Assembly: GCA_026398175.1 (NCBI GenBank)
Contig: JAPLTJ010000144.1
Coordinates: forward strand, 1 to 59,649
Direction of reading: 5' to 3'
Length of the DNA: 59,649 bases
Source of the DNA: Verrucomicrobiia bacterium
GTDB taxonomy: Bacteria; Verrucomicrobiota; Verrucomicrobiia; Chthoniobacterales; UBA6821
Each line of letters starts with the position of its first letter. Position 1 is the first letter of the stretch. Positions 44-44,309 of this stretch are shown here, in pieces. The notes below the pieces were generated by a model. It was given only the letters and a program-made list of their open reading frames with translations. It searched no databases and was not told the origin of the DNA. The position numbers and the translations under genes are program-made.

Positions 44-234
44 GATAATCTCCTTGGTTTTGACACCTTAAAGATTACCATCATCATGTAGCCTTTCTAT
101 TTTTTTTCACGTGTTGCACTTCGCGGTTGAAAGGGCCATTGAAAAAAAACCATCATTTTGAAAATCATTTTTTGCTAGAACATCATTGTAAAAAACAAAC
201 CTATTAAAATAGCATTTCAACTCTTGCGCCAGCT

Positions 235-269
235 ACTCTTTACCCTTTACTCTTCACTCTTTACTTCTT
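235..269 (+). repeat. heptamer array H1 (type II, 5 units)
   Basis: ACTCTTT ACCCTTT ACTCTTC ACTCTTT ACTTCTT; ends 6 nt before uppP ATG. Confidence 0.9.
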
Positions 270-275
270 TCCATC

Positions 276-1133: not shown

Positions 1134-1161
1134 CCTGCTGCCTGCAGCCTGTAGCCTGTTC
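1134..1161 (+). repeat. heptamer array H2 (type I, 4 units)
   Basis: CCTGCTG CCTGCAG CCTGTAG CCTGTTC; starts right after uppP TAA, ends 2 nt before ATG 1164. Confidence 0.9.
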
Positions 1162-4851: not shown

Positions 4852-4897
4852 ACAGGTTACAGGTTACAGGTTACAGGGTACAGGGTACAGGCTACAG
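4852..4897 (-). repeat. heptamer array H3 (type I, 6.5 units)
   Basis: Minus strand reads CTGTAGC CTGTACC x2 CTGTAAC x3; ends 4 nt before the MFS start (4847). Confidence 0.9.
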
Positions 4898-8202: not shown

Positions 8203-8251
8203 AGAGTAAAGGGTGAAGAGTCAAGGGTGAAGAGTCAAGGGTGAAGAGTAT
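8203..8251 (-). repeat. heptamer array H4 (type II, 7 units, 14-nt super-period)
   Basis: Plus strand AGAGTCAAGGGTGA x3; minus strand ACTCTTC ACCCTTG...; ends 7 nt before the PHP-GT start (8195). Confidence 0.9.
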
Positions 8252-14075: not shown

Positions 14076-14771
14076 ATGTTCTTTTCGGCCACTCGTTACT
14101 CGTTACTCGTTACCCTTTACTCGCTGGCGATGCTCTGCACCGCCAGCGCTGAACCCTCTGCGGAAGACCTCCTCCGCGAGGCACGGCTTCGTCCGCCCAC
14201 TCATCCCATCACGCTTGCTGCAGAAATTCGTGGAGCGGAAGAACCGCTTCCGCTGACATTCAAAATTGGAAAAGGCCAGATTGAATATCAACTTCACGAT
14301 CCCGAAGAGACGATTGTTTTAAAATTGGGAACGACAAATTCTTCTCTCAGCGAAACAAAAAAAGGTATCACCAAGCTCGTTACTCAAGAAAAGCGATATC
14401 AAGAAATTCGCAACACTGGAGTGACCTACGACGATCTCTCGCTCGGTTTTCTTTATTGGCCTCATCCTCGCTTAGCTGGCACTCAGCAACTCCGTGGCAC
14501 CAAGGCTTCCATCATCGAGTTAATTCCACCCGCTGATGATCTTGGCCCCTACGGCTCGGCCCGCATCTGGATTGATCAAGCAAGTGGCGCTCCGCTGCGC
14601 ATGGAAGGTTTTGATAAAAATGGAAATCTTTTAAAACGCTTTGAAGTCATTTCCGCTCAAAAAATCGATGGCATCTGGACCCTCAAAGAAATGCGCATCG
14701 AAACCTTTAATTCCACAACCCACGCTGTCACTCAGCGGCGTTATCTCACGATTCATCGAGATAGTAAATAA
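14076..14771 (+). CDS. LolA-like outer-membrane lipoprotein-sorting protein (tentative)
   Basis: Signal peptide plus C-terminal RIWIDQASGAPLRMEGFDKNGNLLKRFEV...DGIWTLKEMRIE pattern seen in LolA_like proteins; residues 6-17 are encoded by a heptamer array. Confidence 0.55.
   Translation: MFFSATRYSLLVTLYSLAMLCTASAEPSAEDLLREARLRPPTHPITLAAEIRGAEEPLPLTFKIGKGQIEYQLHDPEETIVLKLGTTNSSLSETKKGITKLVTQEKRYQEIRNTGVTYDDLSLGFLYWPHPRLAGTQQLRGTKASIIELIPPADDLGPYGSARIWIDQASGAPLRMEGFDKNGNLLKRFEVISAQKIDGIWTLKEMRIETFNSTTHAVTQRRYLTIHRDSK
14091..14125 (+). repeat. heptamer array H6 (type II, 5 units) inside a coding region
   Basis: ACTCGTT x3 ACCCTTT ACTCGCT, translated as TRYSLLVTLYSL in the signal peptide of ORF 14076. 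Confidence 0.9.
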
Positions 14772-15117: not shown

Positions 15118-15160
15118 TTCTTTTGTGCTCTTTGCGTTCTTTTGTGGCTATTTTCTTTCT
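15118..15160. repeat. family C, solo half-copy C3
   Basis: CTTTGCGTTCTTTTGTGGCTATTTTCTTTCTTCC matches the right half of C2; abuts the lolC/E stop. Confidence 0.55.
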
Positions 15161-15162
15161 TC

Positions 15163-16440: not shown

Positions 16441-16475
16441 GAGTAATGAGTAACGGGTAACGAGTAACGGGTAAA
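16441..16475 (-). repeat. heptamer array H7 (type II, 5 units)
   Basis: Plus strand GAGTAAT GAGTAAC GGGTAAC GAGTAAC GGGTAAA; abuts the lolC/E ATG (16440). Confidence 0.9.
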
Positions 16476-16569
16476 ACCAAATTTTCAAAGATTAATTTTT
16501 GTTATTAAAAAATCTGAACATTTGCGTGAATAACAAGAAGATTATATCTATTTTATGTTAACCTCCGAA

Positions 16570-16604
16570 ACGCTTTACTCGTTACCCGTTACTCGTTACT
16601 TTTT
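16570..16604 (+). repeat. heptamer array H8 (type II, 5 units)
   Basis: ACGCTTT ACTCGTT ACCCGTT ACTCGTT ACTTTTT; ends 2 nt before ATG 16607; inverted relative to H7. Confidence 0.9.
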
Positions 16605-16606
16605 TC

Positions 16607-19600
16607 ATGCCCTCTCCCAATCGATCCATTTTTGCTGACCCTCGCGGTCGCCGACGTCGCTGGCTACAAGTCTTGCTCTTGTTGACAGTGGTCACGCTCT
16701 TAGGTGCTTCTATCTATTTTATTTTGAGCTTGCTAATCGCGCCCAAGCTTTATTTGCCGCCAAATGTGCGCGACTATCGAGCACAACTTAAGTCTGCATC
16801 CTCCACGCCCTCGCCTCTTCTGGAGATGAAAGATGACTGGCATCATTTTCTTCCAACAAAATCAACGCCTCTATTCTCTCCCAATTTAACTGCTTTTAAT
16901 CTGCCAATTGGCCCGCTGAAAAGACCTGGAATTTCTGCGAGCTTGGCGCCTTCGCTCTTTCCTATTCGTCTTGGCTATGCCTCTTCGTTTGATAATCCCA
17001 GCGATCTCTCGCTCAAGCATCATGCCGATCTCCTAACTCATGTGGCAACCGATTGGTTCACGCTTACTGGCGTTGAACAAAAATTACTTGAAGAGCCGAA
17101 TGATCCTCTCGTTTCTTTTTGCACCCGCAAGGGACTTACTCTCTTGCCGATCTTGCGAAATCTTGATGGTGATCAGTGGCAATCGGAAGCGGCAGAAGGG
17201 CTCCTCAAGGCCTCGACTCAGGAGCAGACTGCTTTCTTTGATCATCTCTTGCAGCACCTGCCGCCAAGCGCCATCGGCATTCTCCTGGAGTGGAGTGAAA
17301 TTGATGTTACCTATCGCCCCGATCTCACGCGCTTTTTAACAGCGTTTGCGACTTACTTTCATGAACATCATCGAGAACTTTGGATCACGATTCCAACGGG
17401 AAAAGATCAGGCACTTTATGACATCGCTACGCTCAGCAATGTTGCTGATCATCTTGTCGCCGCACTCTACGACCAAAATTCTGATCCAGATGACGCCGGG
17501 GCTCTCGCCACGATGGAATGGTTTCAAGAGTCCCTCAAGACGTTGCTCGCACAAGGCAATGCAGATAAATGGGTGATTACGCTCGGCGCTTATGGTTATG
17601 ATTGGAATAATACGAAAGAAACTTTGGAGCCGCTCAGTTTTGTCGATGTCATGGCACGTGGTAATTTAGCGGAGGTCGGCTCCGTCGCCGTGGAACCTCC
17701 CTCTTTTTCCCCTCATTTTGATTATATCTCACAGGAAGAAAACAAAACTATCCTTTCTACCGATCATGCTCTGCAGTCTACCAAAGCCTCACCACACAAT
17801 GAGCATGAAATCTATTTCCTCGATGCGACCACGTTTTACAACCAACTTCATGTTTTAAAACCGTACCACGTTGGAGGCATTGGAATTTATCGCTTGGGTC
17901 AAGAAGATCCTGATCTTTGGAAAGGACTTCAATTAACGCTCAACATGGAGGCTGAACAACGGGAAGAACCGACCACAGACGAACTTCATGATTTAGAAAA
18001 TCTCGATTTCAAACATGAAATAGCCTCCATCGGTTCTGGAGACTTCCTCTCTGCTGGAGAGGCCTCCAGCAATGGTTCCAGGACGGTCACTCTCGGCGAA
18101 GAAAACCTGCTCGTTGAAAATTACAATCAATTTCCTCGTCCTGCCTGCGTCTATCGCCAAGGATCACCCGGCCCCCATCAAGTTGCCATCACGTTTGATG
18201 ATGGCCCAGACCCAACATGGACTCCCAAACTTTTAAAAATCCTCAAAGAAAAACAAGTTCCAGCCGCCTTTTTTATTCTGGGATGCCAAGCGCAACAGTT
18301 TCCTGATTTGGTGCAACGCATTCAAAAAGAAGGTCACGAGTTTGGAAATCATACTTACACTCATGAAAACTTAGGCGAGATTAGCGATGAAAAAATTTGC
18401 TTGGAGCTCAATGCCACCACGCGCCTTTTAGAAAGTATCACTGGTCATTCAACTTCGCTTTTTCGTCCTCCTTACAACGGCGACGGCAATCCTTCAACGC
18501 CCGGAGAATTACGCGCCTTGCAAGTCGCTTCGGAGCTCGGTTACCTGACCGTTGGAGAATCAATTGATCCAAACGACTGGGAACAACCTGGTGTTGAAAA
18601 TATCATCCAGCGCGTTAAGAACCAGCGCGCTCAAGGTGGAAGCATCCTCCTTTTTCACGATGCGGGTGGCAACCGCTCCCAGACTGTAGCGGCACTTCCT
18701 CAGGTCATCGATTATTTCCGCGCACGTGGCGATGAAATTGTTCCTCTCTCCGTCATGATTGGACTTCCCGATGACATTCTGATGCCTCCTTTGCGCCAGG
18801 CCGATGTGACACTTGCAACGCGATATGTTTATGGCAGCTTCGCAACCTTTCGATTCTTAGAAATGGTCGCCTGGTCCCTCCTCGTCATTGCAACGCTGAT
18901 TTCTCTACTTGGCATTCTATTCTATGTCACTTGCGCCATCCGTCATCGCAAGATAGAAAAAGAAAATTTTCTCAACCCCCAGCTTCCAACCTCCAGCCTT
19001 CTTCCAGCTAGCATTATCATCGCTGCCTACAACGAAGAGAGAGTAATCATCTCGACGTTAGAACACCTCATTGCCAGCGATTATGACGCTCCTCTTCAAT
19101 TAATTGTTGTTGATGATGGATCGCAAGATCAGACAGCAGCGGTTATCGAAGCCTTCATCGAAAAAAGTAAATCAATAACTAATCGCTCTCTTATTTTAAT
19201 TCGCCAACCGAACTCAGGCAAAGCAACCGCCTTGAACAGAGCTATTGAAGCGGCTCATCATGAATTGATCATCACGCTCGATGCAGACACCATGGTCACT
19301 CCAAAAGCCTTACAAGAACTGATCCTCCCCTTCTCGGATCCTAAGGTGGGAGGTGTCTCAGGGCACATCCGCGTTGGCAATCCTCATCAATGGCTTGGAC
19401 GCTTCCAGCAAATTGAATATGAATTTGCTTTTGAAGTGAATCGTCGAGCTCAAGATCTTTTAGGATGCATCACGGTTCTCCCTGGTGCTTTGAGCGCCAT
19501 CAGGGCAACAGCGCTTCGTGAAGCAGGTCCACTCCCCACAGAAACATTAGCAGAAGACACTGACCTCACCTTGCAACTGCAGCGCTTAGGTTGGAAAATA

Positions 19601-20164
19601 ACTTATGCACCGATGGCCTTGGCAGACACAGAAGCCCCCAACAGCATTAAGGCACTTCTCTCTCAACGCTTCCGCTGGGCCTTTGGCATTTTACAATGCC
19701 TTTGGAAACATCGCTCACTTCTGCTGAGTCCAGGCTCCGGATGGCTCGGTTGGTTTGCCCTGCCTTCGATTTGGGTTTTTCAAATTGGACTCATCGCACT
19801 CACGCCACTGCTCGACTTTATGGTGATCTGCTCGCTTTTCTGGGGACGCGGAAGTGCCATCTGGCCTTATTTTTGTATTTCGCTAGTGCTCGACATGAGC
19901 CTTGCTGCCGTTGCGGCGCACTTCGCTAAACGCACCGCCTGGTCTGCTTGGAGAGCCCTTCCTATGCGTTTTCTTTATCGTCCCCTCCTCGGTTATATCA
20001 CGTGGAAATGCCTCATCAAAGCAGCCGCAGGAAGCTGGGTCCGCTGGAGCAAGCTAGAACGGACAGCAGCAGCCATCAAAGAGAAAGAAGAAATTCACAG
20101 GGATAGAAGCGATGGAAGGGATGAAGACAAAAAAATAACCGCTAAAAGCGCTAAAGGCCGCTAA
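16607..20164 (+). CDS. three-module exopolysaccharide protein: GH18-like TIM-barrel-like region + CE4 (NodB) deacetylase + processive GT2 synthase
   Basis: VAITFDDGPDP...HEFGNHTYTH (CE4); IIIAAYNEE, VVDDGSQD, LDADT, QRFRWAFG (GT2 D,D,D,QxxRW); N-terminal GILLEWSEID...YGYDW is GH18-like; last ~24 codons come from repeat A2. Confidence 0.8.
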   Translation: MPSPNRSIFADPRGRRRRWLQVLLLLTVVTLLGASIYFILSLLIAPKLYLPPNVRDYRAQLKSASSTPSPLLEMKDDWHHFLPTKSTPLFSPNLTAFNLPIGPLKRPGISASLAPSLFPIRLGYASSFDNPSDLSLKHHADLLTHVATDWFTLTGVEQKLLEEPNDPLVSFCTRKGLTLLPILRNLDGDQWQSEAAEGLLKASTQEQTAFFDHLLQHLPPSAIGILLEWSEIDVTYRPDLTRFLTAFATYFHEHHRELWITIPTGKDQALYDIATLSNVADHLVAALYDQNSDPDDAGALATMEWFQESLKTLLAQGNADKWVITLGAYGYDWNNTKETLEPLSFVDVMARGNLAEVGSVAVEPPSFSPHFDYISQEENKTILSTDHALQSTKASPHNEHEIYFLDATTFYNQLHVLKPYHVGGIGIYRLGQEDPDLWKGLQLTLNMEAEQREEPTTDELHDLENLDFKHEIASIGSGDFLSAGEASSNGSRTVTLGEENLLVENYNQFPRPACVYRQGSPGPHQVAITFDDGPDPTWTPKLLKILKEKQVPAAFFILGCQAQQFPDLVQRIQKEGHEFGNHTYTHENLGEISDEKICLELNATTRLLESITGHSTSLFRPPYNGDGNPSTPGELRALQVASELGYLTVGESIDPNDWEQPGVENIIQRVKNQRAQGGSILLFHDAGGNRSQTVAALPQVIDYFRARGDEIVPLSVMIGLPDDILMPPLRQADVTLATRYVYGSFATFRFLEMVAWSLLVIATLISLLGILFYVTCAIRHRKIEKENFLNPQLPTSSLLPASIIIAAYNEERVIISTLEHLIASDYDAPLQLIVVDDGSQDQTAAVIEAFIEKSKSITNRSLILIRQPNSGKATALNRAIEAAHHELIITLDADTMVTPKALQELILPFSDPKVGGVSGHIRVGNPHQWLGRFQQIEYEFAFEVNRRAQDLLGCITVLPGALSAIRATALREAGPLPTETLAEDTDLTLQLQRLGWKITYAPMALADTEAPNSIKALLSQRFRWAFGILQCLWKHRSLLLSPGSGWLGWFALPSIWVFQIGLIALTPLLDFMVICSLFWGRGSAIWPYFCISLVLDMSLAAVAAHFAKRTAWSAWRALPMRFLYRPLLGYITWKCLIKAAAGSWVRWSKLERTAAAIKEKEEIHRDRSDGRDEDKKITAKSAKGR

Positions 20165-20250
20165 AAACTAAAAATCTTTTTTGTGTTATTTCGCGTATTT
20201 CGCGGTTTGAAAATTTCTTTATCCCTTCCATCGCTTCCATCCCTGTGAAT
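20093..20250 (+). mobile_element. family A, copy A2 (~158 bp)
   Basis: 30-bp arms ATTCACAGGGATrGAAGCGATGGAAGGGAT; core shared with A3 (inverted) and A4; an extra partial arm at 20265-20287 encodes the ribF C-terminus. Confidence 0.9.
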
Positions 20251-20260
20251 TCTTTTGTCT

Positions 20261-21199
20261 TTATGCTTCCATCCCTGTGAATATTTCTTTCACCACTTCC
20301 ACATCCTTGATGATTTGAAGTCGCAGTTCTTCGAGATTGGGAAATTTAATTTCAGGACGAAGGTAGGCAATAGGAGTCATCGTGAGCTCTTGCCCATAGA
20401 GGTCTCCCTCAAAATCGAAGAGATGAACTTCTACCGTTGTTGGAAAAGGAACATCAGAAATTGTGGGGCAATGTCCAATGTTAGCGATGCCTTGATGTTT
20501 TTTTTCACCGACTGTTGCTAAGACGGCATAGACTCCATCAGGCGGAAGCTGAATCCGAGGGAGTGAAAGATTCGCTGTTGGAAAACCAAAATCGCGCGCT
20601 TTTTTATTTCCTTCGACAACAGTTCCCGTTAGTGAGTACCGCCGACCTAAACAAGCCGCCGCTTCCTCAAAATCATCGATCGCAATGGCTCTGCGAATAC
20701 GGGTACTGCTGACAGCGCTGCGATTGACTTCAATCGGCTTGATCGTCATCACCGAAAAATGAAATTTTTCTCCCAGCTCTTTTAACAAATCGAGATTTCC
20801 TTCTCCTCCTTTTCCAAAAGACCAAGAGGCTCCAATAGCAATGGTCTTCAAGTTAGGAAGAGCTTCCACCAGTTGAGTGATAAATTCCGTTGCTGGAATC
20901 ACGGCTAGCTGTTCATCAAATGCTAGCAACAAAACAGCATCGACTCCCAGCTCTTGAAGTAATTTTAATTTTTGTTCCGTCGTCGTTAAAAGTGGCGGTG
21001 CTATCGCTGGCCTCAACAACGAAGCCGGATGTCGATCAAAGGTCATGGCCACGACTTTTCCACCAACACGCCGAGCCTCTTCCTGAGCCCGTCCGATCAA
21101 AGCTTGATGCCCTACATGAACGCCATCAAAGGTGCCGCCGACGAGGATGATAGGACCGGATAATGTTTTAAGATCAGAAATTGAACGGAAGAGATTCAC
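20261..21199 (-). CDS. ribF: bifunctional riboflavin kinase / FMN adenylyltransferase
   Basis: GTFDGVHVGH nucleotidyltransferase motif and C-terminal riboflavin kinase region; GTG start lies in an A3 arm and the last 6 codons lie in a partial A arm. Confidence 0.9.
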   Translation of the reverse strand: MNLFRSISDLKTLSGPIILVGGTFDGVHVGHQALIGRAQEEARRVGGKVVAMTFDRHPASLLRPAIAPPLLTTTEQKLKLLQELGVDAVLLLAFDEQLAVIPATEFITQLVEALPNLKTIAIGASWSFGKGGEGNLDLLKELGEKFHFSVMTIKPIEVNRSAVSSTRIRRAIAIDDFEEAAACLGRRYSLTGTVVEGNKKARDFGFPTANLSLPRIQLPPDGVYAVLATVGEKKHQGIANIGHCPTISDVPFPTTVEVHLFDFEGDLYGQELTMTPIAYLRPEIKFPNLEELRLQIIKDVEVVKEIFTGMEA

Positions 21200-21343
21200 G
21201 GGATGGAAGCGATAAAAGAAATTATAAACCGCGAAATACGCGAACTAACACGAAAAAGAAAAATTTATTTTAGCGCAATTTAGCGAATTTAGCGGTTATT
21301 TTTTACTTCCTCATCTCTTCCATCGCTTCGATCCCTGTGAATT
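21194..21343 (-). mobile_element. family A, copy A3 (~150 bp, opposite orientation)
   Basis: Arms at 21194-21218 and 21316-21343; core is the reverse complement of the A2 core (…CGCGAAATACGCGAA…). Confidence 0.85.
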
Positions 21344-21348
21344 TCTTC

Positions 21349-22056
21349 TCACGCTCCACGTAAGCGCGAAACTTCAGGCAAGCTGAGCGCATGACCCAAT
21401 ACAACCTCACGCGGTGTTTCTTTGAGACGGTCAGCAGGAAAAGCGTTCTCCACGGAAAAACGACCTGACTTGGTCCGACGCAATGATTGCAAATGAGCGC
21501 CACAGCCCAATTCTTCGCCAATATCATAAGCATAGGTACGAACATAAAAACCTTTGCTGCAAACAACGCGAAAATCAATCGTGTCGGGAGTTGTTCCTAA
21601 AATCTGATGCGCGTAGATGTGCACAAAACGAGGTTCTCGCTCCACTGTTTTTCCTTGGCGCGCGAGCTTGTACAAAGGCACTCCATCTTTCTTGATGGCC
21701 GAGACCATGGGAGGCGTTTGATAAAAGTCGCCATCAAATTTAGAAAAAGCAGCTTCTAAGACGGCTGGATCAAAAGCAGGAACAGGTTTCTCTTCGACAA
21801 TGATTCCATCAGCATCTTGAGAGTCTGTTGTCACACCTAGCTTCATCGTCCCAACATATTCTTTGTCTTCGCTCATGAGAAGATCTTGAATTTTTGTCCC
21901 GCGACCTAAGGTCAACATCAAGAGGCCCGTTGCAAGAGGATCAAGCGTCCCGCAGTGCCCGATTTTTTTAATGCCGAGCACACGCCGCGCAATAGCAACG
22001 ACATCATGAGAGGTCATGTTGCTAGCTTTATCAATGAGTAAAACACCGTCAGTCAT
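21349..22056 (-). CDS. truB: tRNA pseudouridine(55) synthase
   Basis: [12 protein letters not shown] catalytic-Asp motif; operon context. Confidence 0.93.
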
Positions 22057-22062
22057 AGGAAA

Positions 22063-22097
22063 ACAGTAAAGAGTGAAGAGTAAAGGGTAAAGAGTAG
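22063..22097 (-). repeat. heptamer array H9 (type II, 5 units)
   Basis: Plus strand ACAGTAA AGAGTGA AGAGTAA AGGGTAA AGAGTAG; 6 nt from the truB start (22056). Confidence 0.9.
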
Positions 22098-22116
22098 CTA
22101 GAGTAACAATGAAAAG

Positions 22117-23085
22117 CTATTTCAGATTTTCACATAGTTCGTTAAGAACTTTTTTTCCTATCTCCTCGATCGAACCTTGCAACGTAGCGCCTGCGGCCAT
22201 GCGATGACCACCACCGCCATACCGTTGACAAAATGATGAGGCATCAAAGGAAAGAGTTTTAGCGCGAACACTGATGCGAACTTGATTATTCATTAACTCT
22301 TCAAAAAAAATTGCTGCTTCAACTCCTTCCACTGAACGCAATTGATCAATGATTCCCTCGGTATCCTCAGGAAGAGTTCCCAGTGAGGCAACATCTTTTC
22401 TCGTGAGTGCAAAACTGGCAATGCGATCATCACAAGAAAATTTTGCGTTCATCAAAGCATGTCGCAATAATTCTAAACGACGACGCGGCTGACTCCCATA
22501 CATCGCCTGAGAAAATGTTCCAACAGAGACGCCAGCCTTCACCAACGCGGCAGCAATTTCAAACGTCCTTGCTGTTGTGCTGCTGTATTGAAACGATCCT
22601 GTATCTGTCGAAATAGCAGCGTAAAGATTGCAAGCGATCGCTGGCGTCATCGTGATTTTTTCTTGGAGAAATCCTTCCGCTAAAATTTCTCCCGTGGCCG
22701 GTGAGGAAGAGACAATTAAATTTTGATCTGCAAAATTTTCATTACTCACATGATGATCAATCGCAAGCCAAAGAGGCGAACGCGCACTCGCCAAGACTTT
22801 TTTCCCGAGGCGCTCTTTAGTAGCTGTGTCCAAAATAAGAATGGCATCAAATTCTTGAACTTGCTCCGAAGGCTTTGTAATCAACGCCGCTTCGGGTAGG
22901 TAAGAAAATTTTTGAGGCACGCCATCTTCATTCCAAGCCGTGACCGAATGCCCTTCCTGCCTGAGCCAGAGAGCCGCCGCCAACGTCGAGCCGAGCGCAT
23001 CACCATCAGGACGAGCATGACTCACAACGAGGATACGATTCGCTGAGCGAAGCGCTTGATGGATTTCAGCAAAAGTTGTTTTCAT
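22117..23085 (-). CDS. nrnA: DHH/DHHA1 phosphoesterase (NrnA-like oligoribonuclease/pAp phosphatase)
   Basis: SHARPDGDALGS, IDHHVSN (DHH) and GGGHRMAAG (DHHA1) motifs. Confidence 0.85.
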   Translation of the reverse strand: MKTTFAEIHQALRSANRILVVSHARPDGDALGSTLAAALWLRQEGHSVTAWNEDGVPQKFSYLPEAALITKPSEQVQEFDAILILDTATKERLGKKVLASARSPLWLAIDHHVSNENFADQNLIVSSSPATGEILAEGFLQEKITMTPAIACNLYAAISTDTGSFQYSSTTARTFEIAAALVKAGVSVGTFSQAMYGSQPRRRLELLRHALMNAKFSCDDRIASFALTRKDVASLGTLPEDTEGIIDQLRSVEGVEAAIFFEELMNNQVRISVRAKTLSFDASSFCQRYGGGGHRMAAGATLQGSIEEIGKKVLNELCENLK

Positions 23086-23088
23086 TGG

Positions 23089-23123
23089 GAACAGGCGGAA
23101 GGCTGAAGACTAAAGGAGGAAGG
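23089..23123 (-). repeat. heptamer array H10 (type III, 5 units)
   Basis: Plus strand GAACAGG CGGAAGG CTGAAGA CTAAAGG AGGAAGG; 3 nt from the nrnA start (23085); complementary to H11. Confidence 0.8.
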
Positions 23124-23197
23124 AATAAATATTATTAAGAACGATATTATAATAATGAAAATGGATTCAAAAAATTGTTTTTTTTCAACTACCATCG

Positions 23198-23232
23198 CCC
23201 TCAGCTCTCAGCCTTTAGTCTTCGGCCTGTTC
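23198..23232 (+). repeat. heptamer array H11 (type III, 5 units)
   Basis: CCCTCAG CTCTCAG CCTTTAG TCTTCGG CCTGTTC; contains the rbfA stop (23215-23217) and its last codons. Confidence 0.8.
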
Positions 23233-23565
23233 GTTCTCCAACTCATCCAACAGCGCAATCACGCGCGTCCCACGTTCAATCGATTCATCTAATTGAAAAT
23301 TTAAAATCGCCGTATGCTTCAAAATGACACGCCTTGATAAGGCCTGCTGAAGAAAGGTTCGATTTTTTTCAAGAACATCCAAAGCTTTTTTCTTCTGAGC
23401 ATCCGTTCCGATCACACTAATGAAAATATGCGCTTGCTTTAAGTCAGGCGTAATATCCACAGCACGCACGGAGACGAGAGGTGCTTCAAACTTGATCTCG
23501 CGCGAAAGCAAAGCTCCCAGCTCTCGCTTTAACAATTCACAAACTCTGACAAGACGGTGGGACAT
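23215..23565 (-). CDS. rbfA: ribosome-binding factor A
   Basis: 116 aa, RVCELLKRELG... RbfA N-terminus; sits between infB and nrnA/truB. Confidence 0.9.
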   Translation of the reverse strand: MSHRLVRVCELLKRELGALLSREIKFEAPLVSVRAVDITPDLKQAHIFISVIGTDAQKKKALDVLEKNRTFLQQALSRRVILKHTAILNFQLDESIERGTRVIALLDELENEQAED

Positions 23566-23571
23566 ATTTTA

Positions 23572-23606
23572 AAAGTAAAGGGTAAAGAGTAAAGGGTGCA
23601 GAGTGG
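23572..23606 (-). repeat. heptamer array H12 (type II, 5 units)
   Basis: Plus strand AAAGTAA AGGGTAA AGAGTAA AGGGTGC AGAGTGG; 6 nt from the rbfA start (23565). Confidence 0.9.
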
Positions 23607-23701
23607 CTGGCGCAAATGATGAAGTCCTTTTCCAAGAGAAAATCTCCTGCCGAAATACGAATGCCGAAATGCTCATTTGATGTTCGATCTTAAAATTCAG
23701 A

Positions 23702-23736
23702 ACTCTTTACTCTTTACCCTTTACTCTTCACCCGCT
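23702..23736 (+). repeat. heptamer array H13 (type II, 5 units)
   Basis: ACTCTTT x2 ACCCTTT ACTCTTC ACCCGCT; 3 nt from the infB stop; 20-nt perfect complement to H12. Confidence 0.9.
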
Positions 23737-23739
23737 CCT

Positions 23740-25962
23740 TCAGAGCGTCTGAGCAATTTTTTCGAGCGTATAACATTCGATGATATCCCCCTCTTCGTAA
23801 TCATTGAAATCACCTAAGCGGATACCACACTCAAGCCCAGCTCGGACCTCTTTGACATCTTCCGTAAAGCGACGCAGCGTTCCAATGCCGCCATCATAGA
23901 CCGATTGGCGGCGACGCAAGATACGAGCGCGTGCCGTCCGTGTAATACGACCATCGCTTACTTGACATCCTGCAACAATACCTCGTGTCAGTTCAAAAAC
24001 TTGTTTGACCGTGGCGTGACCGATCACCGATTCACGCAACTCTGGATCAAGAAGGCCTGCCATCGCCTCACGCATTTGATCAATGAGTTCATAAATAATG
24101 CTATAAAGTTTGATCTGAATGCCTTCCCGACGAGCTATCGTAGCGGCTGTATTTTCTAATTTTACACTAAAGCCAATAATGACCGCATTCGAGGTCGTTG
24201 CCAAAAGAACATCCGAGTCACTAATTGGTCCAACGCCTGAGTGAATAATTTTCAGATCAACTTTATTTTTAGGGATGTCTGCTAAAGCACCAATAATCGC
24301 TTCCAGCGCACCTTGCATATCTGCTTTCAAAACAATGTGCAGTACTTTCTTTTGTTCCGCTGCTAAATTTTTAAATAAATTTTCTAATGTCGTACGCTGA
24401 GGTGCTGCGAGTTTGGTGCTACGAAGGCTTTCTAAGCGCTCTTCACTCAATTGCCGTGCGGAACGTTCTGAATCCATCACGATGAGCTCATCTCCAGCAT
24501 TAGGCAGACCGCTTAATCCAAGGACTTTGACCGGCATTGCAGGAAGAGCCTCCTTCACAGGTTGGCCCAGATCATTGGTGAGCTGTTTCAACTTGCCCCA
24601 ATAGTTCCCACAAATAAATGAATCTCCGACTTTGAGCGTTCCTGTATTGATAATCACTACTGCTGTTGGTCCTCGGCCTGCCTCCACTTGTGCCTCAATA
24701 ACATTGGCTCTAGCTGGTTGATCAGGGTCAGCCTTAAGTTCCAACATTTCAGCCTGAAGCAACATCATCTCTAAAAGCTGATCAATTCCTTTTCCTGTTG
24801 CAGCCGAAACTTCACAACAAACGGTATCTCCGCCCCAATCTTCCGGAACCAATCCTTTGTCTTGCAGTTGAGCTTTGACGCGATCGACATTCGCTGTCGC
24901 CAAATCCACTTTATTAATCGCGACCATGATCGTCACGTTAGCAGCACGCGCGTGGCTTAAGGCCTCCAATGTTTGCGGCATCAATCCATCATCAGCCGCC
25001 ACCACTAGAACAACAATGTCAGTAATGTTAGCACCTCGCACACGCATCGCTGTAAAAGCGGCATGTCCTGGTGTGTCAATGAAAGTGATCGGATGCCCGT
25101 TTTTTGTGATCATGTACGCACCCATGCGCTGCGTGATACCACCGACTTCACCTGAAGCAACCTTGGTCCGACGAATAGCATCGAGCAAAGAAGTCTTACC
25201 GTGATCGACATGCCCCATAAAAGTAATGATCGGAGCACGGGGCTCCATCCCTTGACTTTTTATTTCAGAAGGAGCTGGTAGTGGTGGCACAACAACGACC
25301 ACTTCAGCTTTGTGCATTCCTGCTCCAGCAACACGCTTTTCCCTCTCAAAAATAAATCCATAACGCTCGCAAAGCTTCGTGGCAACTTCAGGCTCAACCG
25401 ATTGATTGATGTTGGCGAAGATATTCATCTCCATCAAATCATGAATGACCTTAAAAGGTTTAATCTCCATTTGAGCTGCTAGATCTTTGATCATGATCGG
25501 CTGCTTAATATGGATCACCTTGCGCTTCTCCAAACTTTCTACCAAACTTTCTACAATAGGAGCAGATTCCTCCTCATTAGGTAAGTCCACAGATGGCTCA
25601 AGAACAGGCTCTGGCTCCGGATCTTTGTTCACACCAATGCGCGGAAGAACCTTTCGAGCTGGTCCAGTTCGTTGAACACGCGGCCCTCTCTCTTCAATTA
25701 GAGAGAGTGTAGGAAGGACTACTTTTACCTCTTCTTTTTTCAAAGTTTTTTCAGCACTTTGATCCACACTCTCCTTTTTCTTCAAAGAGGAAGCATCTTC
25801 TTTTTTTCGCCCTGTTTCTTTAGTGCGAGAGGAGGCGGTTTTCCCTTTAGCGTTTCCAGAAGAAAACGATCTACCTCCAGTCGTACCTTTTCCTTTACTG
25901 GAAGAGGGCTTGTGAGAAGAAGTCTTAGAAGATTTTGAGAATGTATTTTTAGAGGTTGTCAT
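23740..25962 (-). CDS. infB: translation initiation factor IF-2
   Basis: [13 protein letters not shown]1 motif, DTPGH, NKVD; low-complexity basic N-terminus. Confidence 0.97.
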
Positions 25963-25967
25963 TTAGT

Positions 25968-27254
25968 TCAACTCTCAACATCGATTGCAGAAGCCTGTTT
26001 AGCTTCAGAAGGGGAGCGGAGATTCTTTGCAGTTTTTAAAATTTCTTCTGCTCTTTCGGTACTACAACCGAGTAGATCAGCGATATCACTTGGATCGACG
26101 GTAACGACGACTTCTACTGAATTCATACCACCATCAGCTAAAATTTTAGCTTCTGCTTCGGTGACTCCTAAAGCGGAGGCAAGTTGGTGCACAGCTCCAG
26201 CCATTTGCTGTTCGAAGACCTGAGCAGCCGTACGATCTTCTTGAATATCGAGATCCCAACCTGTCAGACGTGAAGTTAATCGCGCATTTTGCCCACGCTT
26301 TCCAATTGCAAGAGCAAGATCTTCTTTCTCCACGAAAAGGTGCAATACATGAGCGGCTTCATCCACCTCCACATTTTTGATGCGCGTTGGCTTCAACGCT
26401 TCTCTGATAAATTCTTTAGGATCTTCATACCAACGAATGATGTCTACTTTCTCGTTGTTGAGCTCCCGCACGATATTTTTCACACGCGCGCCTCGCACTC
26501 CAACACAAGCTCCGACAGGATCCACTTTCTCGTTAGCGCTATAAACAGCAACCTTGGTACGGAAGCCTGCCTCACGCGCAATCGCGCGAATGTCAACGGT
26601 ATGATCCGCGATTTCACTCACCTCAATTTCAAAAAGACGTCGAATGAAATTAGGATGACTCCGTGAAAGAATAATTTCTGGACCGCGGCTCCCATTTTCG
26701 ACAGCAACAACGTAGGCGCGCAAACGATCTCCAATATTGTATTCTTCTGTACTGACCCGTTCTTTAGACGGCATAACTGCCTCAAATTTACCAAGATCAA
26801 TAATGACATCGGATCGATCAAAACGCCGTACCGTTCCATTGACAATTTCTCCAGCACGATCTTTGAACTCGTCGTAGATCATGTTTTTTTCAATCTGGCG
26901 AATCCGTTGCGTAATGGCCTGGCGAGCCGTTTGAGCGGCGATACGTCCAAAATCAGAAGGAGTTACTTCTATTTCGATATCATCACCAATGGCAACATCT
27001 TTGTTGACCAGCTTGGCACGGGCAAGACTGATTTCTTCTTGCGGATTCGTTACCGTTTCGACAACAAGAGGCCTTGCAAAAGCACGGATTTGTCCATTCT
27101 TCGCATTGATATCAATGCGAACTTCTCGAGAAATAGAGAAGCTCTTTTTGGCAGCAGCAATCAATGCCGTCGAGATGGCCTCAATGAGGGCCTCACGTTT
27201 AATACCTTTTTCGCGCTCGAGGTAATCGAGCATGGCGATAAATTCAGAGTTCAT
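25968..27254 (-). CDS. nusA: transcription termination/antitermination factor NusA
   Basis: S1 + KH1/KH2 architecture (VGACVGVRGARVK GxxG loop), directly upstream of infB. Confidence 0.95.
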   Translation of the reverse strand: MNSEFIAMLDYLEREKGIKREALIEAISTALIAAAKKSFSISREVRIDINAKNGQIRAFARPLVVETVTNPQEEISLARAKLVNKDVAIGDDIEIEVTPSDFGRIAAQTARQAITQRIRQIEKNMIYDEFKDRAGEIVNGTVRRFDRSDVIIDLGKFEAVMPSKERVSTEEYNIGDRLRAYVVAVENGSRGPEIILSRSHPNFIRRLFEIEVSEIADHTVDIRAIAREAGFRTKVAVYSANEKVDPVGACVGVRGARVKNIVRELNNEKVDIIRWYEDPKEFIREALKPTRIKNVEVDEAAHVLHLFVEKEDLALAIGKRGQNARLTSRLTGWDLDIQEDRTAAQVFEQQMAGAVHQLASALGVTEAEAKILADGGMNSVEVVVTVDPSDIADLLGCSTERAEEILKTAKNLRSPSEAKQASAIDVES

Positions 27255-27401
27255 AACGTATAAATTTTTCCAGATGAATAAGAGGGCTCTCTTCTTTAGC
27301 AGAAAAAAGTCCCTCCCAAAAATATATTGGATTGATGAATATGACGCCCTATGAACAAATGGTCAATCTCGGAATAATTTTCTTTTCCCCAAGAAAATCA
27401 T

Positions 27402-27436
27402 TGTAACGAATAGCGAGTAACGAGTAATGAGTACTG
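27402..27436 (-). repeat. heptamer array H14 (type II, 5 units; the only start-proximal array in purine-rich orientation)
   Basis: TGTAACG AATAGCG AGTAACG AGTAATG AGTACTG; ends 3 nt before nth ATG. Confidence 0.85.
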
Positions 27437-27439
27437 CTG

Positions 27440-28081
27440 ATGAAACCTCACCAGCTCGCTAGCCTCCTTGCACAAAAATTCCCTCAACTCTATCCTGACG
27501 CACATTGCGAGCTGCTTTACAGCAATCCCCTCGAGCTTCTTGTCGCAACGATTCTTTCAGCACAATGCACTGATGTTCGCGTCAATCAAGTGACACCTGC
27601 ACTTTTTCAACGCTGCAAAACCGTTGAGGACTACGCCTCGATTTCTCAACAGGAACTGGAAACGATCGTTCACTCCACCGGATTTTTTCGCAATAAGGCA
27701 ACAGCTATTCGCAAGACCGCCGCTGCACTTTTGGAAAAACATGCTGGAAAAATCCCGCAATCTCTCGCTGAACTTTCAGCCCTTCCTGGCGTTGGAAGAA
27801 AAACAGCCAATGTTGTTTTGAGTAATGTCTTCGAGATTCATGAGGGTGTTGTTGTCGATACGCATGTCGGACGCCTCTCTCAACGCCTCGGCCTCACGCG
27901 CCATCATCAGCCCGTCAAAATCGAACAAGACCTGATGAAACTTTTCCCGCAAAAAAATTGGGGCATCTTAAGCCACTGGCTGATCTTGCATGGCCGTCGG
28001 CGTTGCTACGCGCGCAAGCCTGATTGCATCGAGTGCGAGCTGCGTTTGATTTGCCCAAGTAAAGACTTGGTCAAAAAGTAA
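27440..28081 (+). CDS. nth: endonuclease III
   Basis: HhH-GPD LPGVGRKTANVVL and C-terminal C-x6-C-x2-C-x5-C cluster (CYARKPDCIECELRLIC). Confidence 0.93.
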   Translation: MKPHQLASLLAQKFPQLYPDAHCELLYSNPLELLVATILSAQCTDVRVNQVTPALFQRCKTVEDYASISQQELETIVHSTGFFRNKATAIRKTAAALLEKHAGKIPQSLAELSALPGVGRKTANVVLSNVFEIHEGVVVDTHVGRLSQRLGLTRHHQPVKIEQDLMKLFPQKNWGILSHWLILHGRRRCYARKPDCIECELRLICPSKDLVKK

Positions 28082-28097
28082 CGGGTAACGAGTATTT
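28077..28097 (-). repeat. heptamer array H15 (type II, 3 units)
   Basis: AGTAACG GGTAACG AGTATTT; the nth stop TAA (28079-28081) is part of unit 1. Confidence 0.75.
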
Positions 28098-28186
28098 TTC
28101 AGATCCAAATAAAGTCAACATTTCGAAACTTGTAATCTGGCACGATATATTTTAAAAAAAATCTTCTCAGAAAATTTTGTCTCAGA

Positions 28187-28214
28187 ACTCGTTACTCGTT
28201 ACCCTTTACTCGTT
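28187..28214 (+). repeat. heptamer array H16 (type II, 4 units)
   Basis: ACTCGTT x2 ACCCTTT ACTCGTT; contains the mqn-gene stop (28199-28201) and its last 4 codons; complementary to H15. Confidence 0.9.
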
Positions 28215-29239
28215 ACAAAAAAAGGTGTTCTTTTTTTTGGAGTGATCCCCGCCGCCTTCACCCATTCGAGCACCTTCTCCACATTAGTTTCCAAAATTGT
28301 TCCCGCTTTCTGCGTAACTTGATCTTCCAAGACGACATCAAAATCAGAAGCTCCCCACTTCAAGGCGGCAGGACCTTGAGCGCCTTGCGTTAAAAATGAA
28401 GCGCGAATCACAGGAATGTTATCAAGATAGAGTCGGCTCAAGGCAACCGCTTTTAAATATTCTTCGTTGCTGATGCGCGAGCCTCCAAGAGCCGTATTAT
28501 CAGATTGGTAAGTCCAGAGTAAAAAACTGCTAAAGCCGCCGGTTTTATTTTGCAAAGCTCGGATATGTTCTAAATGTTCGATGCGATCTTCCCAGCTCTC
28601 CCCAAAACCAATCACCATCGTGGCCGTCGTGCCATAGCCGAGGCGCTGCGCAAGCTCCATTCCATCGAGGTATTCAGAAACAGAATATTTCAAAGGTGAT
28701 AATTTTTGACGCCAGGCATCCGTCAGAATTTCAGCGCCTCCTCCTGGAATCCATCGCAGACCGGCCTTCTGGAGCCTCACCAAAGCTTCTTCCAAAGAAA
28801 TCCGAGAACTGCGCGCAATAAAAATCACCTCCACAATGGTCGGCCCATAAATTTCAATCGCATCTCCATAGCGCGCACGCACTGATCGAAAAAGTTTTTC
28901 GTAATGATCTATTTTTAATTTGGGATGGAATCCTCCCTCCATCGCAACAAGACTTCCTCCAATCGCCAACAAGTCATCGATTTTTTTAAAAATAGCTTCA
29001 TCACTGAGAACATAACCCTCGGGATCATTGGGCCGACGATAAAAAGCGCAGTAGCTGCAATTGGCCACGCAAATATTCGTATAGCTCACAATTCTCATGA
29101 TGAGATAAGTTGCTTCCTCTTCGGGGCACTGCTCGCACCGCTTGGCATGGGCCTGCAGACGCAATTGTTCAGGATCGCGAGCAAGAAGATGGAGCGCTGA
29201 TTCTCGTGTGAGTGGGTGTTTCATAGACGACCTAAACAA
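28199..29239 (-). CDS. radical SAM enzyme of the futalosine menaquinone pathway (MqnC/MqnE family)
   Basis: CVANCSYCAF CxxxCxxC motif, GGGAEIL and GFSSFLLWTYQ regions typical of the CofH/MqnC/MqnE clade; cannot separate MqnC from MqnE by eye. Confidence 0.8.
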   Translation of the reverse strand: MFRSSMKHPLTRESALHLLARDPEQLRLQAHAKRCEQCPEEEATYLIMRIVSYTNICVANCSYCAFYRRPNDPEGYVLSDEAIFKKIDDLLAIGGSLVAMEGGFHPKLKIDHYEKLFRSVRARYGDAIEIYGPTIVEVIFIARSSRISLEEALVRLQKAGLRWIPGGGAEILTDAWRQKLSPLKYSVSEYLDGMELAQRLGYGTTATMVIGFGESWEDRIEHLEHIRALQNKTGGFSSFLLWTYQSDNTALGGSRISNEEYLKAVALSRLYLDNIPVIRASFLTQGAQGPAALKWGASDFDVVLEDQVTQKAGTILETNVEKVLEWVKAAGITPKKRTPFFVTSKG

Positions 29240-30074: not shown

Positions 30075-30590
30075 CCAAAAATAAATCAAATTTTTTTCCA
30101 AAATAAAAAAACACTACACCCAAACGTCATTCCAGCGAACCCTGGAATCCAGCGACTGTCGATCTTTATTTTTGTTCTCATAAAAGTTGTATAATACCAT
30201 CTCCCCAAAATAAATGGACTATAAGACGCTGGAAGTTTGGTGTTGAGCAAGGCGGAAGAGTGCAGCGCTATGCGAACATAACGCCAGATCTGACAACGAA
30301 GCTCAGCGCCAAAATAACAAGTCAGATGGTCCAGATCTGACAACGAAGCTCAGCGCCAAAATAACAAGTCAGATGGTCCAGTTATTTTAGGGAGATGGTA
30401 TAACGTCACAAAAGAAAGAAATGCTTTATTTTATAGAACCATCAATTCTGTATTGAAGGGCTCCTGGATTCCAGCGTCCGCTGGAATGACGCTAATGTGT
30501 GAGTGCAGATGAAATATGGATCAGAAGCGTTCTGAGTTCTGCCTTCGCGAGAATGAACTTTTTCTTCTATTGGTAGATTTTATTTTGGAC
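30075..30590. mobile_element. family B, copy B2 (full composite form, 516 bp)
   Basis: Outer inverted repeats CCAAAAATAAATC / GATTTTATTTTGG, inner GTCATTCC...GGAATGAC hairpin ends, inner ATACCATCTCC / GGAGATGGTAT; flanks shared with B4. Confidence 0.8.
30284..30381. repeat. 47-bp tandem duplication (2.1 copies) inside B2
   Basis: CCAGATCTGACAACGAAGCTCAGCGCCAAAATAACAAGTCAGATGGT at 30284-30330 and 30331-30377, identical. Confidence 0.95.
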
Positions 30591-32350: not shown

Positions 32351-32385
32351 ACAGGTTACAGGTTACAGGTCACAGGCTACAGGAA
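32351..32385 (-). repeat. heptamer array H17 (type I, 5 units)
   Basis: Plus strand ACAGGTT x2 ACAGGTC ACAGGCT ACAGGAA; 4 nt from the parA start (32346). Confidence 0.9.
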
Positions 32386-35950: not shown

Positions 35951-35985
35951 CTGTAGCCTGTAGCCTGTAGCCTGTAGCCTCTCTC
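35951..35985 (+). repeat. heptamer array H18 (type I, 4 perfect + 1 degenerate unit)
   Basis: CTGTAGC x4 CTCTCTC; ends 2 nt before ymdB ATG. Confidence 0.95.
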
Positions 35986-36780: not shown

Positions 36781-36811
36781 AATGATGAAAGATGATGAAA
36801 GATGATGAAAG
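36781..36811 (+). repeat. decamer array H19 (GATGATGAAA x3)
   Basis: Three 10-nt units between the ymdB stop and the left arm of repeat A4. Confidence 0.8.
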
Positions 36812-36813
36812 AA

Positions 36814-41881: not shown

Positions 41882-41886
41882 CATTC

Positions 41887-44275: not shown

Positions 44276-44309
44276 CCTGCAGCCTGTAGCCTGTAGCCTG
44301 TAGCCTTTT
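44276..44309 (+). repeat. heptamer array H20 (type I, 4 units + degenerate)
   Basis: CCTGCAG CCTGTAG x3 CCTTTTA; fills the spacer between the ntrC-like stop (44268) and dcd ATG (44310). Confidence 0.95.

Follow-up and report, generated by a model that had tools for sequence, protein, structure and literature searches.

Hairpin elements with tandem-repeat arms at the gene junctions of a Chthoniobacterales infB-rbfA-nrnA-truB-ribF locus: rapid turnover and a possible role in gating translation

We describe a class of intergenic elements in a 59,649-nt stretch of DNA (contig JAPLTJ010000144.1 of assembly GCA_026398175.1; the whole stretch is hereafter called the window) from a Chthoniobacterales bacterium (Verrucomicrobiota), an uncultured soil or freshwater verrucomicrobium. 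At junctions of its nusA-infB-rbfA-nrnA-truB-ribF gene cluster, arrays of short tandem repeats form complementary pairs that bracket whole intergenic spacers, with a purine-rich array at the upstream stop codon and a pyrimidine-rich one just before the downstream start codon, and in relatives this architecture persists while the sequence of the arms is replaced. Tentatively, and with a confidence that stops a little short of even, we favor a reading in which these are fast-turnover hairpin elements whose stem, formed in the mRNA, would gate translation of the downstream gene through translational coupling or RNase III processing.

The junctions compared came from loci around nrnA and rbfA, four of them in genomes and 28 in metagenomes (labeled L001 onwards), and all intergenic spacers of the window were inspected for arrays. 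The closest genomes are Chthoniobacterales metagenome-assembled genomes, with NrnA identities of 89% for L001 and 81% for L002. Pfam matches bore out the gene names nusA, infB, rbfA, truB, ribF and nth assigned in an earlier reading of the window made from the sequence alone (the sequence-only reading), and also returned a DHH/DHHA1 nrnA-like gene, a radical-SAM mqn-like gene and a lolC/E-like permease.

The sequence-only reading had singled out paired arrays at successive junctions, and on checking all of its coordinates proved correct. The infB stop codon (23740-23742, minus strand) is followed 3 nt downstream by a first array (23702-23736), and the complementary array (23572-23606) lies 95 nt away, 6 nt short of the rbfA ATG (23565-23563). 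The two share the 20-nt perfect complement GTAAAGGGTAAAGAGTAAAG, and a repeat search extended the inverted pair to arms of 32 nt, 88% complementary and 94 nt apart. At the next junction the rbfA stop codon (23215-23217) falls inside one array (23198-23232) and the other (23089-23123) ends 3 nt before the nrnA ATG; folding reproduced the stem of about 16 bp attributed to them. The truB-proximal array (22061-22097) and the family-A element between truB and ribF (21194-21343) were found as described, and the interior of the latter also occurs in copies at 20092-20251 and 36804-36973.

These observations are real and far beyond chance. Tandem arrays of period 7 number 11 in the window, against none or one for each of periods 5, 6 and 8-11; a laxer threshold gives 14, the other periods between 4 and 12 having 0-5 each. 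The window also holds 102 inverted pairs of exact 12-mers separated by 40-300 nt, grouped in 16 clusters; Markov-simulated sequences averaged 1.8 and never exceeded 5. Spacer folds gave z-scores of -3.7 and -3.9 (-6.5 for the L001 orthologue), none of 200 shuffles folding as well, and the mean RNAduplex energy of arms with their own partners was -47.7 kcal/mol, compared with -22.0 kcal/mol for cross-element pairs, strong cross-pairing being limited to elements of the same family. Over 16 same-direction junctions in the window and its relatives, long-range stems of 16-43 bp are predicted, lying -3 to +22 nt from the stop codon and -3 to +13 nt from the start codon and enclosing 69-112 nt; the proposal that long stems bring the upstream stop next to the downstream start is thus borne out, as a prediction, for every same-direction pair. 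Rfam 15 returned no match at gathering score for the whole window, and the sole match for the region 21000-24000 was a chance-level plant miRNA hairpin (E = 0.5), so a known RNA family was rejected as the identity of the elements.

The placement of the arrays obeys two orientation rules that were not part of the sequence-only reading and are added by this analysis. Window arrays comprise about 3-6.6 units of 7 nt (typically about five) and sit at gene boundaries, as do related 9-nt arrays; their unit families are CTTTACY, TTACYCG, CCTGTAG, CCTTCAG and TCACCCT/TGACTCT. Under the first rule, the G-poor, pyrimidine-rich strand is in sense 0-9 nt upstream of the start codon in 13 of 14 start-adjacent arrays (two-sided binomial p ~0.002), in long spacers (75-695 nt) and short ones alike, the genes concerned starting at 276, 1164, 4847, 8195, 14076, 16440, 16607, 22056, 23085, 23565, 32346, 35988 and 44310. 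The sole exception, nth at 27440, is conserved in L001. Under the second rule, the purine-rich complement lies on or just past stop codons, and it supplies those of rbfA, nth and mqn. Together the rules mean that a same-direction junction with both kinds of array has its purine-rich arm 5' and its pyrimidine-rich arm 3' and, inverted repeats being strand-symmetric, yield the same polarity where two 3' ends converge and where two 5' leaders diverge. Among window spacers with two arrays, four of five have inverted arms of the same family, as do all those examined in relatives.

Several features of the repeat units may be recorded here. The purine-rich units GUAAAGR, GUAACGR and AGGCUGA each hold a stop codon (for instance at 23702-23736, 23198-23232 and 28073-28097) and, since 7 is not divisible by 3, a run of three such units gives stops in all frames just past a gene; CCUGUAG arrays likewise provide stops in all frames, just before start codons, a property that the octamer and nonamer families do not have. 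Arrays can also sit in frame within coding sequence, as at 14076-14130 in the window and 11883-11916 in L001; the signal-peptide-like N-terminus (MFFSATRYSLLVTLYSLAMLCTASA) of a LolA-like protein would come in part from the ACTCGTT array at 14091-14123.

Start sites in the window are poor in Shine-Dalgarno (SD) signals: between -18 and -4, one of 20 genes without arrays and none of the 14 with them has an SD-like motif, and G content falls to 12% at -20 to -1, against 21% overall. Initiation at such SD-less, G-poor sites should need a single-stranded leader, and it is on this expectation that the favored mechanism turns. The elements would be lineage-specific intergenic hairpins with arms of tandem 7-, 8- or 9-nt units, quickly gained, expanded, contracted and replaced through slippage, array copying and possibly template switching between arms, and would persist at operon junctions only in the configuration that closes the transcript spacer from stop to start. 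An unpaired pyrimidine-rich, G-poor array would act as a structure-free leader; an upstream complementary array on the same transcript would convert it into a stem of 25-43 bp (about -40 to -60 kcal/mol) that buries the leader and whose base sets stop and start codons side by side. Co-transcription of the genes and folding of the stems in the cell are inferred, as is any effect on translation or processing. A stem covering about -4 to -40 of the downstream gene would be expected to block free loading of the 30S subunit, and rbfA, nrnA or ribF would be translated only once it had been opened, either by a ribosome terminating at its base, which would permit coupling or re-initiation and mimic a lost ATGA overlap, or by RNase III cutting the long duplex.

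Orthologous junctions document how these elements change (Table 1). The sequence-only reading had proposed a comparison of orthologous spacers, with retention of a single arm counting against it, and the outcome was mostly, though not wholly, in its favor: two complementary arms, in five arm sequences, occupy infB-rbfA in the window, L001/L005, L006/L007, L009 and L015, and one-armed cases exist as well, at infB-rbfA in L002 and at truB-ribF in L010, L012 and L013. Between the window and L001, whose proteins are about 90% identical, each of the three shared pairs is of a different family, while the adjacent nusA-nth spacer aligns end to end. Architecture thus persists through wholesale replacement, not compensatory point changes, and it is not universal; covariation by point mutation was rejected because arms and loop are replaced together. 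The statement that the rbfA-nrnA junction repeats the infB-rbfA design needs a similar qualification. The hairpin is there, but 13 relatives, the closest included, have a 4-nt ATGA stop/start overlap at this junction and lack the 129-nt spacer 23086-23214, which gave RbfA a new C-terminus and stop; it is therefore a derived, recent insertion and not ancestral. No target-site duplication is recognizable at the insertion, and L025 has an independent pair, TAGTTCG/CGAACTA, at the same junction. Elsewhere in the set, the 5' nonamer arm of L009 (1323-1385) is split by a 16-nt mini-hairpin (TGCCGCTAACGCGGCA) that recalls tiny elements nested in repeat arrays. At nrnA-truB the unit is an 8-mer, CTTTAAAC, in L001 (10978-11006) and the 7-mer CTTTACY in the window (22061-22097) and L006, with the start-proximal TTTCCT-ATG conserved; the one-base difference in unit length suggests that units evolve in place and are homogenized by slippage.

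Such turnover is also what would be expected if the elements were selfish or neutral palindromic repeats, akin to REPINs or to miniature inverted-repeat transposable elements (MITEs), or by-products of template switching and slippage, with their mRNA stems incidental and tolerated and their closeness to stop and start codons the result of insertion into very short spacers. We regard this as a serious alternative, though rather unlikely. Besides the replacement of every pair between the window and L001 and the insertion of hairpin 2 into an ATGA overlap, it draws on the gain or loss of one heptamer unit between the near-identical L001 and L005, on the recurrence of one arm family at several loci within a genome, and on the presence in the window of several other dispersed repeat families, one of them REPIN-like. 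The infB-side arm (23697-23731) and the mqn-side arm (28182-28216) are 89% identical over 35 nt, including a 6-nt loop-side flank, TCAGAA, outside the arrays, a hint that one of the GTAAAGR and GTAACGR arms was copied from the other rather than each having expanded independently. A blastn-short search with seven loops against all sequence in the analysis matched only the loops themselves and the near-identical L005 orthologues, and simple MITE copies were rejected for the heptamer pairs, whose interiors are unrelated. Unrelated loops do not by themselves exclude mobility, because the same is true of REPINs, whose two arms belong to one group and lie 71 or 110 bp apart, with every spacer different and hybrids absent (PMC3337134). 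Template switching during replication can in addition create and maintain hairpins (PMC8794818), and in L001 the truB-ribF loop is genuine, pre-existing ribF sequence, which suggests that in-place copying can put arms around sequence that was already present.

Other observations fit selfish insertion poorly and point to the RNA. The 13:1 orientation bias, start-adjacent even in spacers of 75-695 nt, is not predicted by it, since gene-relative orientation of unpaired arrays cannot come from strand-symmetric insertion. Transition mismatches between arms comprise 20 G·T and 5 A·C (with the register set from Watson-Crick matches only), a wobble bias in the sense direction, and for 13 of the 15 independent spacers the more stable fold is the sense one (mean difference -6.1 kcal/mol; p = 0.002 by Wilcoxon test), whereas coding controls show no bias (29 of 60, mean -1.4). 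Arms can outlast loops, being about 70% identical between L017 and L019 at truB-ribF where the loop is 40% identical, and the 183-nt truB-ribF hairpin spacer of L020 (6134-6315) and L023 (6133-6315) is 95% identical, against 63-73% at third codon positions and 61-64% in other spacers of the same loci. A small open reading frame (ORF) in the conserved L020 loop was rejected as an explanation, a stop codon interrupting it in L023. No transposase or RAYT gene was found among the 51 window ORFs scanned with Pfam, and the arms are not palindromic REPs. Finally, a stem of -45 to -60 kcal/mol over an SD-less start would hardly be translationally neutral for rbfA, nrnA or ribF.

Several findings nevertheless weigh against a translation-gating stem. 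The closeness of the arms to gene ends is partly expected for a 150-nt element in a very short spacer, and coupling is impossible at the divergent and convergent pairs. The excess of G·U could stem from transcription-associated C-to-T mutation instead of selection, and the identity of the L020/L023 spacer could reflect either strong constraint or a short recombination tract, the latter because high identity runs about 70 nt into ribF. With a single arm in L002, the purine-rich arm alone in L010, L012 and L013, and no arrays in distant relatives, the stems are lineage-specific and dispensable. At truB-ribF of L001 the ribF start and 13 codons lie within the loop, so stop-next-to-start geometry is not universal; the 3' arm there (a CCTTCAG array) is translated, as an in-frame 7-residue insertion (QSSAFSL) in the RibF N-terminus. 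Most window arrays, moreover, are unpaired.

This last point runs counter to the sequence-only treatment of the pair as the basic unit, most unpaired arrays also obeying the start-codon orientation rule, and raises the question of whether the functional unit is instead the single start-proximal array, serving, as has been put forward for the TAACTGA repeats of Beggiatoaceae, as an SD-independent translation leader or as a docking site for a factor that binds single-stranded RNA (S1, a cold-shock protein or CsrA, for example), with upstream complementary arrays being secondary, occasional cis-antisense copies or remnants. We consider this unlikely. The uniform sense orientation of 13 of 14 arrays 0-9 nt from an ATG with no SD, the excess of unpaired arrays over pairs, and the retention of the parA-like and nth arrays between the window and L001 while all pairs were replaced speak for it, as does the strong similarity to the repeats of Beggiatoaceae, in which two to six heptamers lie in forward orientation near the start and ribosome-binding sites are rare (PMC4679880). 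It leaves unexplained, however, both the same-family inverted arms of two-array spacers and the exact spanning of spacers by stems, and it would require a binding factor for every one of at least six unrelated unit sequences.

Pairs at convergent and divergent genes bear on a role at the level of DNA or transcription. The convergent nth/mqn pair is present at 28073-28093 and 28187-28207 (21 nt at 86%, with an 18-nt core at 94%), as is the divergent lolC pair at 16442-16472 and 16570-16600 (31 nt at 90%, 18-nt core at 100%). The latter had been described as the same layout; the real lolC ATG (16440), however, adjoins its array, and two separate 5' leaders are a better reading than one mRNA stem. 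The bidirectional terminator suggested for the convergent pair also found no support, as no intrinsic-terminator features occur there. Terminator-like sites (short GC stem, 3-8-nt loop, U tract) overlapping arrays were absent from 20000-28400, 27900-28400 and 16380-16660, and the 69-112-nt intervals between arms are unlike the 3-8-nt loops of intrinsic terminators; with none found at the arrays, intrinsic and bidirectional terminators were rejected. Promoters in loops and leaderless array promoters were rejected too (6 matches against 9.5 expected), and the sole predicted promoter inside an array would put the transcription start within rbfA. Sites for a dimeric or looping protein, cruciforms or bidirectional terminators at convergent genes would accord with the strand-symmetric purine-to-pyrimidine polarity in tandem, convergent and divergent contexts and with the uniform arm spacing, but the lack of terminator-like sites at any array and of promoter enrichment, the many arm sequences at one junction, which argue against a single sequence-specific DNA-binding protein, and the RNA-directed signals of array orientation and sense G·U bias make a DNA-level role very improbable.

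Returning to the translation-gating hairpin, an extension that we think improbable may be put forward. The stems may be functional stand-ins for stop/start overlaps, with a terminating ribosome handed straight across the stem to the start; such a handover would be a bacterial counterpart of the ribosome shunt of cauliflower mosaic virus, or of termination-reinitiation, without use of a Shine-Dalgarno sequence. Cold-shock-domain proteins have a footprint of roughly 7 nt, which the 7-nt period of the G-poor arm might match, in which case it would be these proteins that opened or closed the stems, and each repeat family could mark out a set of genes under joint control.

Table 1. Array and hairpin features of the window, followed by the state of two orthologous junctions
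Feature	Positions	Strand	Remarks
Hairpin 1, 5' arm: purine-rich heptamer array, sense GGGUGAAGAGUAAAGGGUAAAGAGUAAAGAG	23702..23736	-	3 nt past infB stop
Hairpin 1, interior (loop), 95 nt, unique	23607..23701	-	unlike other loops or the L001 orthologous spacer
Hairpin 1, 3' arm: pyrimidine-rich, G-poor heptamer array, sense CUCUGCACCCUUUACUCUUUACCCUUUAC	23572..23606	-	6 nt before rbfA AUG
Hairpin 2, 5' arm: purine-rich AGGCUGA-family array	23198..23232	-	holds rbfA stop 23215-23217
Hairpin 2, interior, AT-rich	23124..23197	-	between arms
Hairpin 2, 3' arm: pyrimidine-rich array, sense CCUUCCUCCUUUAGUCUUCAGCCUUCCGCC	23089..23123	-	3 nt before nrnA AUG
Unpaired CUUUACY heptamer array	22061..22097	-	8 nt before truB AUG; same place in L006
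Family-A hairpin element, truB-ribF	21194..21343	-	9-nt periodic arms (GAUGGAAGS), purine-rich to pyrimidine-rich
Convergent left arm: GUAACGR array	28073..28097	+	supplies nth stop 28079-28081
Convergent right arm: GUAACGR array (mqn sense)	28187..28216	-	contains mqn stop 28199-28201
Divergent left arm: UUACYCG array	16441..16475	-	abuts real lolC ATG 16440-16438; MFRPSASLFLAARYLKPKR
Divergent right arm: UUACYCG array	16570..16604	+	~6 nt before ATG 16607 (deacetylase/glycosyltransferase gene)
Unpaired UACUCUU array	234..270	+	upstream of uppP/bacA ATG at 276
Unpaired CCUGYAG array	1134..1159	+	fills 30-nt spacer before ATG at 1164
Unpaired CCUGUAA-type array, 6.6 units	4852..4897	-	4 nt before MFS transporter ATG (4847)
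Unpaired array, 14-nt period (UCACCCUUGACUCU)	8203..8249	-	before glycosyltransferase ATG at 8195
Orientation exception: purine-rich GUAACGA array	27403..27433	+	6 nt before nth ATG; in L001 at 5838-5868
Unpaired CCUGUAA/G array	32351..32383	-	4 nt before parA-like ATG (32346); in L001 at 1100-1132
Unpaired CUGUAGC array, 4.3 perfect units	35951..35980	+	7 nt before ymdB-like ATG 35988; spacer 695 nt
Unpaired CCUGUAG array	44276..44306	+	3 nt before dcd ATG at 44310
infB-rbfA, window			GTAAAGR pair; spacer 174 nt
infB-rbfA, L001 / L005			AGGCTGA pair; 5' arms differ by one heptamer; spacer 152 / 145 nt
infB-rbfA, L006 / L007			nonamer CGCAAAGAA pair; spacer 216 nt
infB-rbfA, L009			nonamer CACAAAGAA pair; spacer 218 nt
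infB-rbfA, L015			TAAGAAC pair, opposite polarity; spacer 201 nt
infB-rbfA, L002			start-proximal TTCTATC array only; spacer 199 nt
infB-rbfA, L010-L024 (more distant)			no arrays; small GC hairpin; spacer 27-76 nt
truB-ribF, window and L006			family A
truB-ribF, L001			AGGCTGA pair
truB-ribF, L017, L019, L020, L023			octamer GGAACTCA/TGAGTTCC pair
truB-ribF, L018			GCGCAGAG/CTCTGCGC pair; truB 87% identical to that of L017
truB-ribF, L010, L012, L013			purine-rich array only, directly before ATG

The window carries further repeat families. Family A has copies at 3456-3574, 20092-20251, 21194-21343 and 36804-36973, with others in L006 (6076-6235) and L009 (~1880); its arms have a 9-nt period (GATGGAAGC GATGGAAGG GAT) and, given its conserved interior (AAAAATCTTTTTTGTGTTA.TT.CGC.TTTCG.GGTTT), it may be a true MITE family, one that keeps the purine-to-pyrimidine polarity and the bracketing of stop and start. 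A separate, REPIN-like family (2646-2674/2778-2805, 30124-30150/30464-30491, 33013-33033/33215-33235 and 35601-35648/35783-35807, with a variant at ~50040-50250) has inverted arms 103-340 nt apart and partly conserved interiors (GATCTTTATTTTTGTTTTCGTAAAAGT); its arm, CGTCATTCCTGCGGACGCAGGAATCCAG, holds an imperfect palindrome of its own, as REP arms do, and none of its copies abuts a gene end. Arrays of the nonamers CACAAAGAA/CGCAAAGAA come after stop codons at 42757-42851, 5663-5773 and 15118-15162, and in L001 (5012-5173), L003 (1050-1080) and L006 (3810-3833). Pairing with TTCTTTGYG arrays is frequent, and in some cases the result is a tight hairpin (loop of 13 nt at 42798-42810) with a T-rich tract behind it; these arrays past stop codons may be terminator-like.

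Less closely related features include a 194-nt sequence that occurs twice (9419-9612 and 11119-11312; 99% identity, 1.7 kb apart), flanking two ORFs without Pfam match (9661-10476 and 10479-11093); a dispersed GC-rich intergenic family (5490-5642, 49872-49951 and 56884-57118) of the form GCATTGCGGCGTCACTCCGGTGCTCGCGTCCTC...CTCGTTCCTGGCACTGCATCGGCTA, with terminal inverted ends TAGAGC.../...GCTCTAG; a 126-nt unit at 47329-47645, present in 2.0 copies plus a partial third inside an ORF without Pfam match (47106-47816); and a perfect 47-nt tandem repeat (2.1 copies, 30284-30381). A small ORF at ~41690-41885, in an apparent spacer of 331 nt, encodes a ribosomal protein S21-like peptide (MPEVLVRKGEPIDRALKRLKSKLDTEGVLDEVRRLRAFETPTQKTKRKAKASAKRAKAKQRYNAH) and is preceded by AGGTGA, one of the window's few SD-like sequences.

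Hairpins in polycistronic transcripts have well-known precedents. Correia/NEMIS elements of Neisseria and ERIC of enterobacteria are MITEs co-transcribed into mRNAs, and RNase III cleaves intercistronic hairpins in phage T7 early mRNA and in the E. coli metY-nusA-infB and rpsO-pnp transcripts, altering the stability or translation of neighboring cistrons; the E. coli operon family nusA-infB-rbfA-truB is likewise involved. Such MITE and RNase III hairpins have stems of unique sequence, or else terminal inverted repeats around a conserved interior, and none is known to be built of tandem heptamers or to be replaced family-for-family at one junction. MITEs also have target-site duplications, whereas the heptamer-armed pairs share no interior and show no recognizable duplication. 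In function, the elements described here would be most like these co-transcribed hairpins and the simple-sequence-repeat hairpin of Haemophilus influenzae, where a transcribed heptamer (ATCTTTC)n hairpin in the 5' untranslated region (UTR) of hmw1A/hmw2A is cut by RNase III, raising expression (Rapun-Araiz et al., NAR 2025, PMC12721329). In both systems a tandem heptamer array lies upstream of a start codon, and repeat number changes over time. That the array is transcribed and forms one arm of a long hairpin is established for hmw; here the hairpin is predicted (z from -3.7 to -6.5) and would have to be transcribed. The imperfect hmw duplex is an RNase III substrate that controls expression, and by analogy our stems may be cleaved; the window itself contains no rnc gene. 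The hmw hairpin, however, belongs to a single virulence locus and lies within the 5'-UTR, with at least 11 repeats pairing with a non-repeat G-rich arm, whereas here both arms are arrays of about five units in reversed polarity (purine-rich arm first), at many loci between housekeeping cistrons and in several sequence families.

In appearance, the elements seem most like TAACTGA/STRR-type arrays, the cyanobacterial STRR heptamers being related to the TAACTGA repeats. The latter, described in marine Beggiatoaceae, some cyanobacteria and Bacteroidetes, are direct repeats of a heptamer for which translational control has been proposed (MacGregor 2015, PMC4679880). Shared with them are the two to six tandem heptamers, intergenic and in forward orientation a few nucleotides upstream of a start where SD sequences are rare, and the downstream genes of all kinds, housekeeping ones included. 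They have one dominant unit, related heptamers being rarely repeated, and inverted pairs in one of 170 sets; here, in contrast, the units fall into at least six families, of period 7, 8 or 9 nt, the unit is not TAACTGA, the phylum is Verrucomicrobiota, and a complementary array is common at stop codons, where it would give rise to intercistronic stems. Perfect CCTGTAG/CTACAGG heptamer arrays were also seen in unrelated IMG/VR contigs (L034-L038; GC content 35-58%), one of which carries cyanobacterial HIP1 (GCGATCGC) sites, so that the unit recurs across phyla, as reported for TAACTGA; the viral contigs scanned for these arrays come from unrelated organisms and offered no orthologous junctions.

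In their evolution, the elements appear closest to REPINs, REP doublets that form hairpins and are mobilized by RAYT transposases (Bertels & Rainey 2011, PMC3337134, PMC3116915). Two inverted arms of the same group, a spacing of about 70-110 bp, non-identical interiors, the lack of hybrid arms, an extragenic location, and many copies and several families per genome are common to both. REPIN arms, however, are short imperfect palindromes, whereas those described here lack an internal palindrome, being made of units such as GTAAAGR, AGGCTGA or GTAACGR repeated directly in tandem; neither abutment of stop and start codons nor a gene-relative orientation rule is reported for REPINs, and the RAYT that mobilizes them was not seen in this window. 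The components of the elements thus have precedents, but the elements fail defining features of each system to which they can be likened.

If the stems act as proposed, an SD-less bacterium would keep its genes translationally linked despite insertions of 130-220 nt, and the junctions compared here would constitute a natural replacement series, with the same site and geometry and five or more arm sequences, on which coupling, processing by RNase III and the way repeat arms co-evolve could be studied. Should they prove purely selfish, tandem repeats would still be a new type of arm for REPIN-like hairpin elements. Start-proximal heptamer arrays, known from Beggiatoaceae, cyanobacteria and Bacteroidetes, are in any case extended to Verrucomicrobiota and linked to hairpin formation, which bears on the long-standing puzzle of their role.

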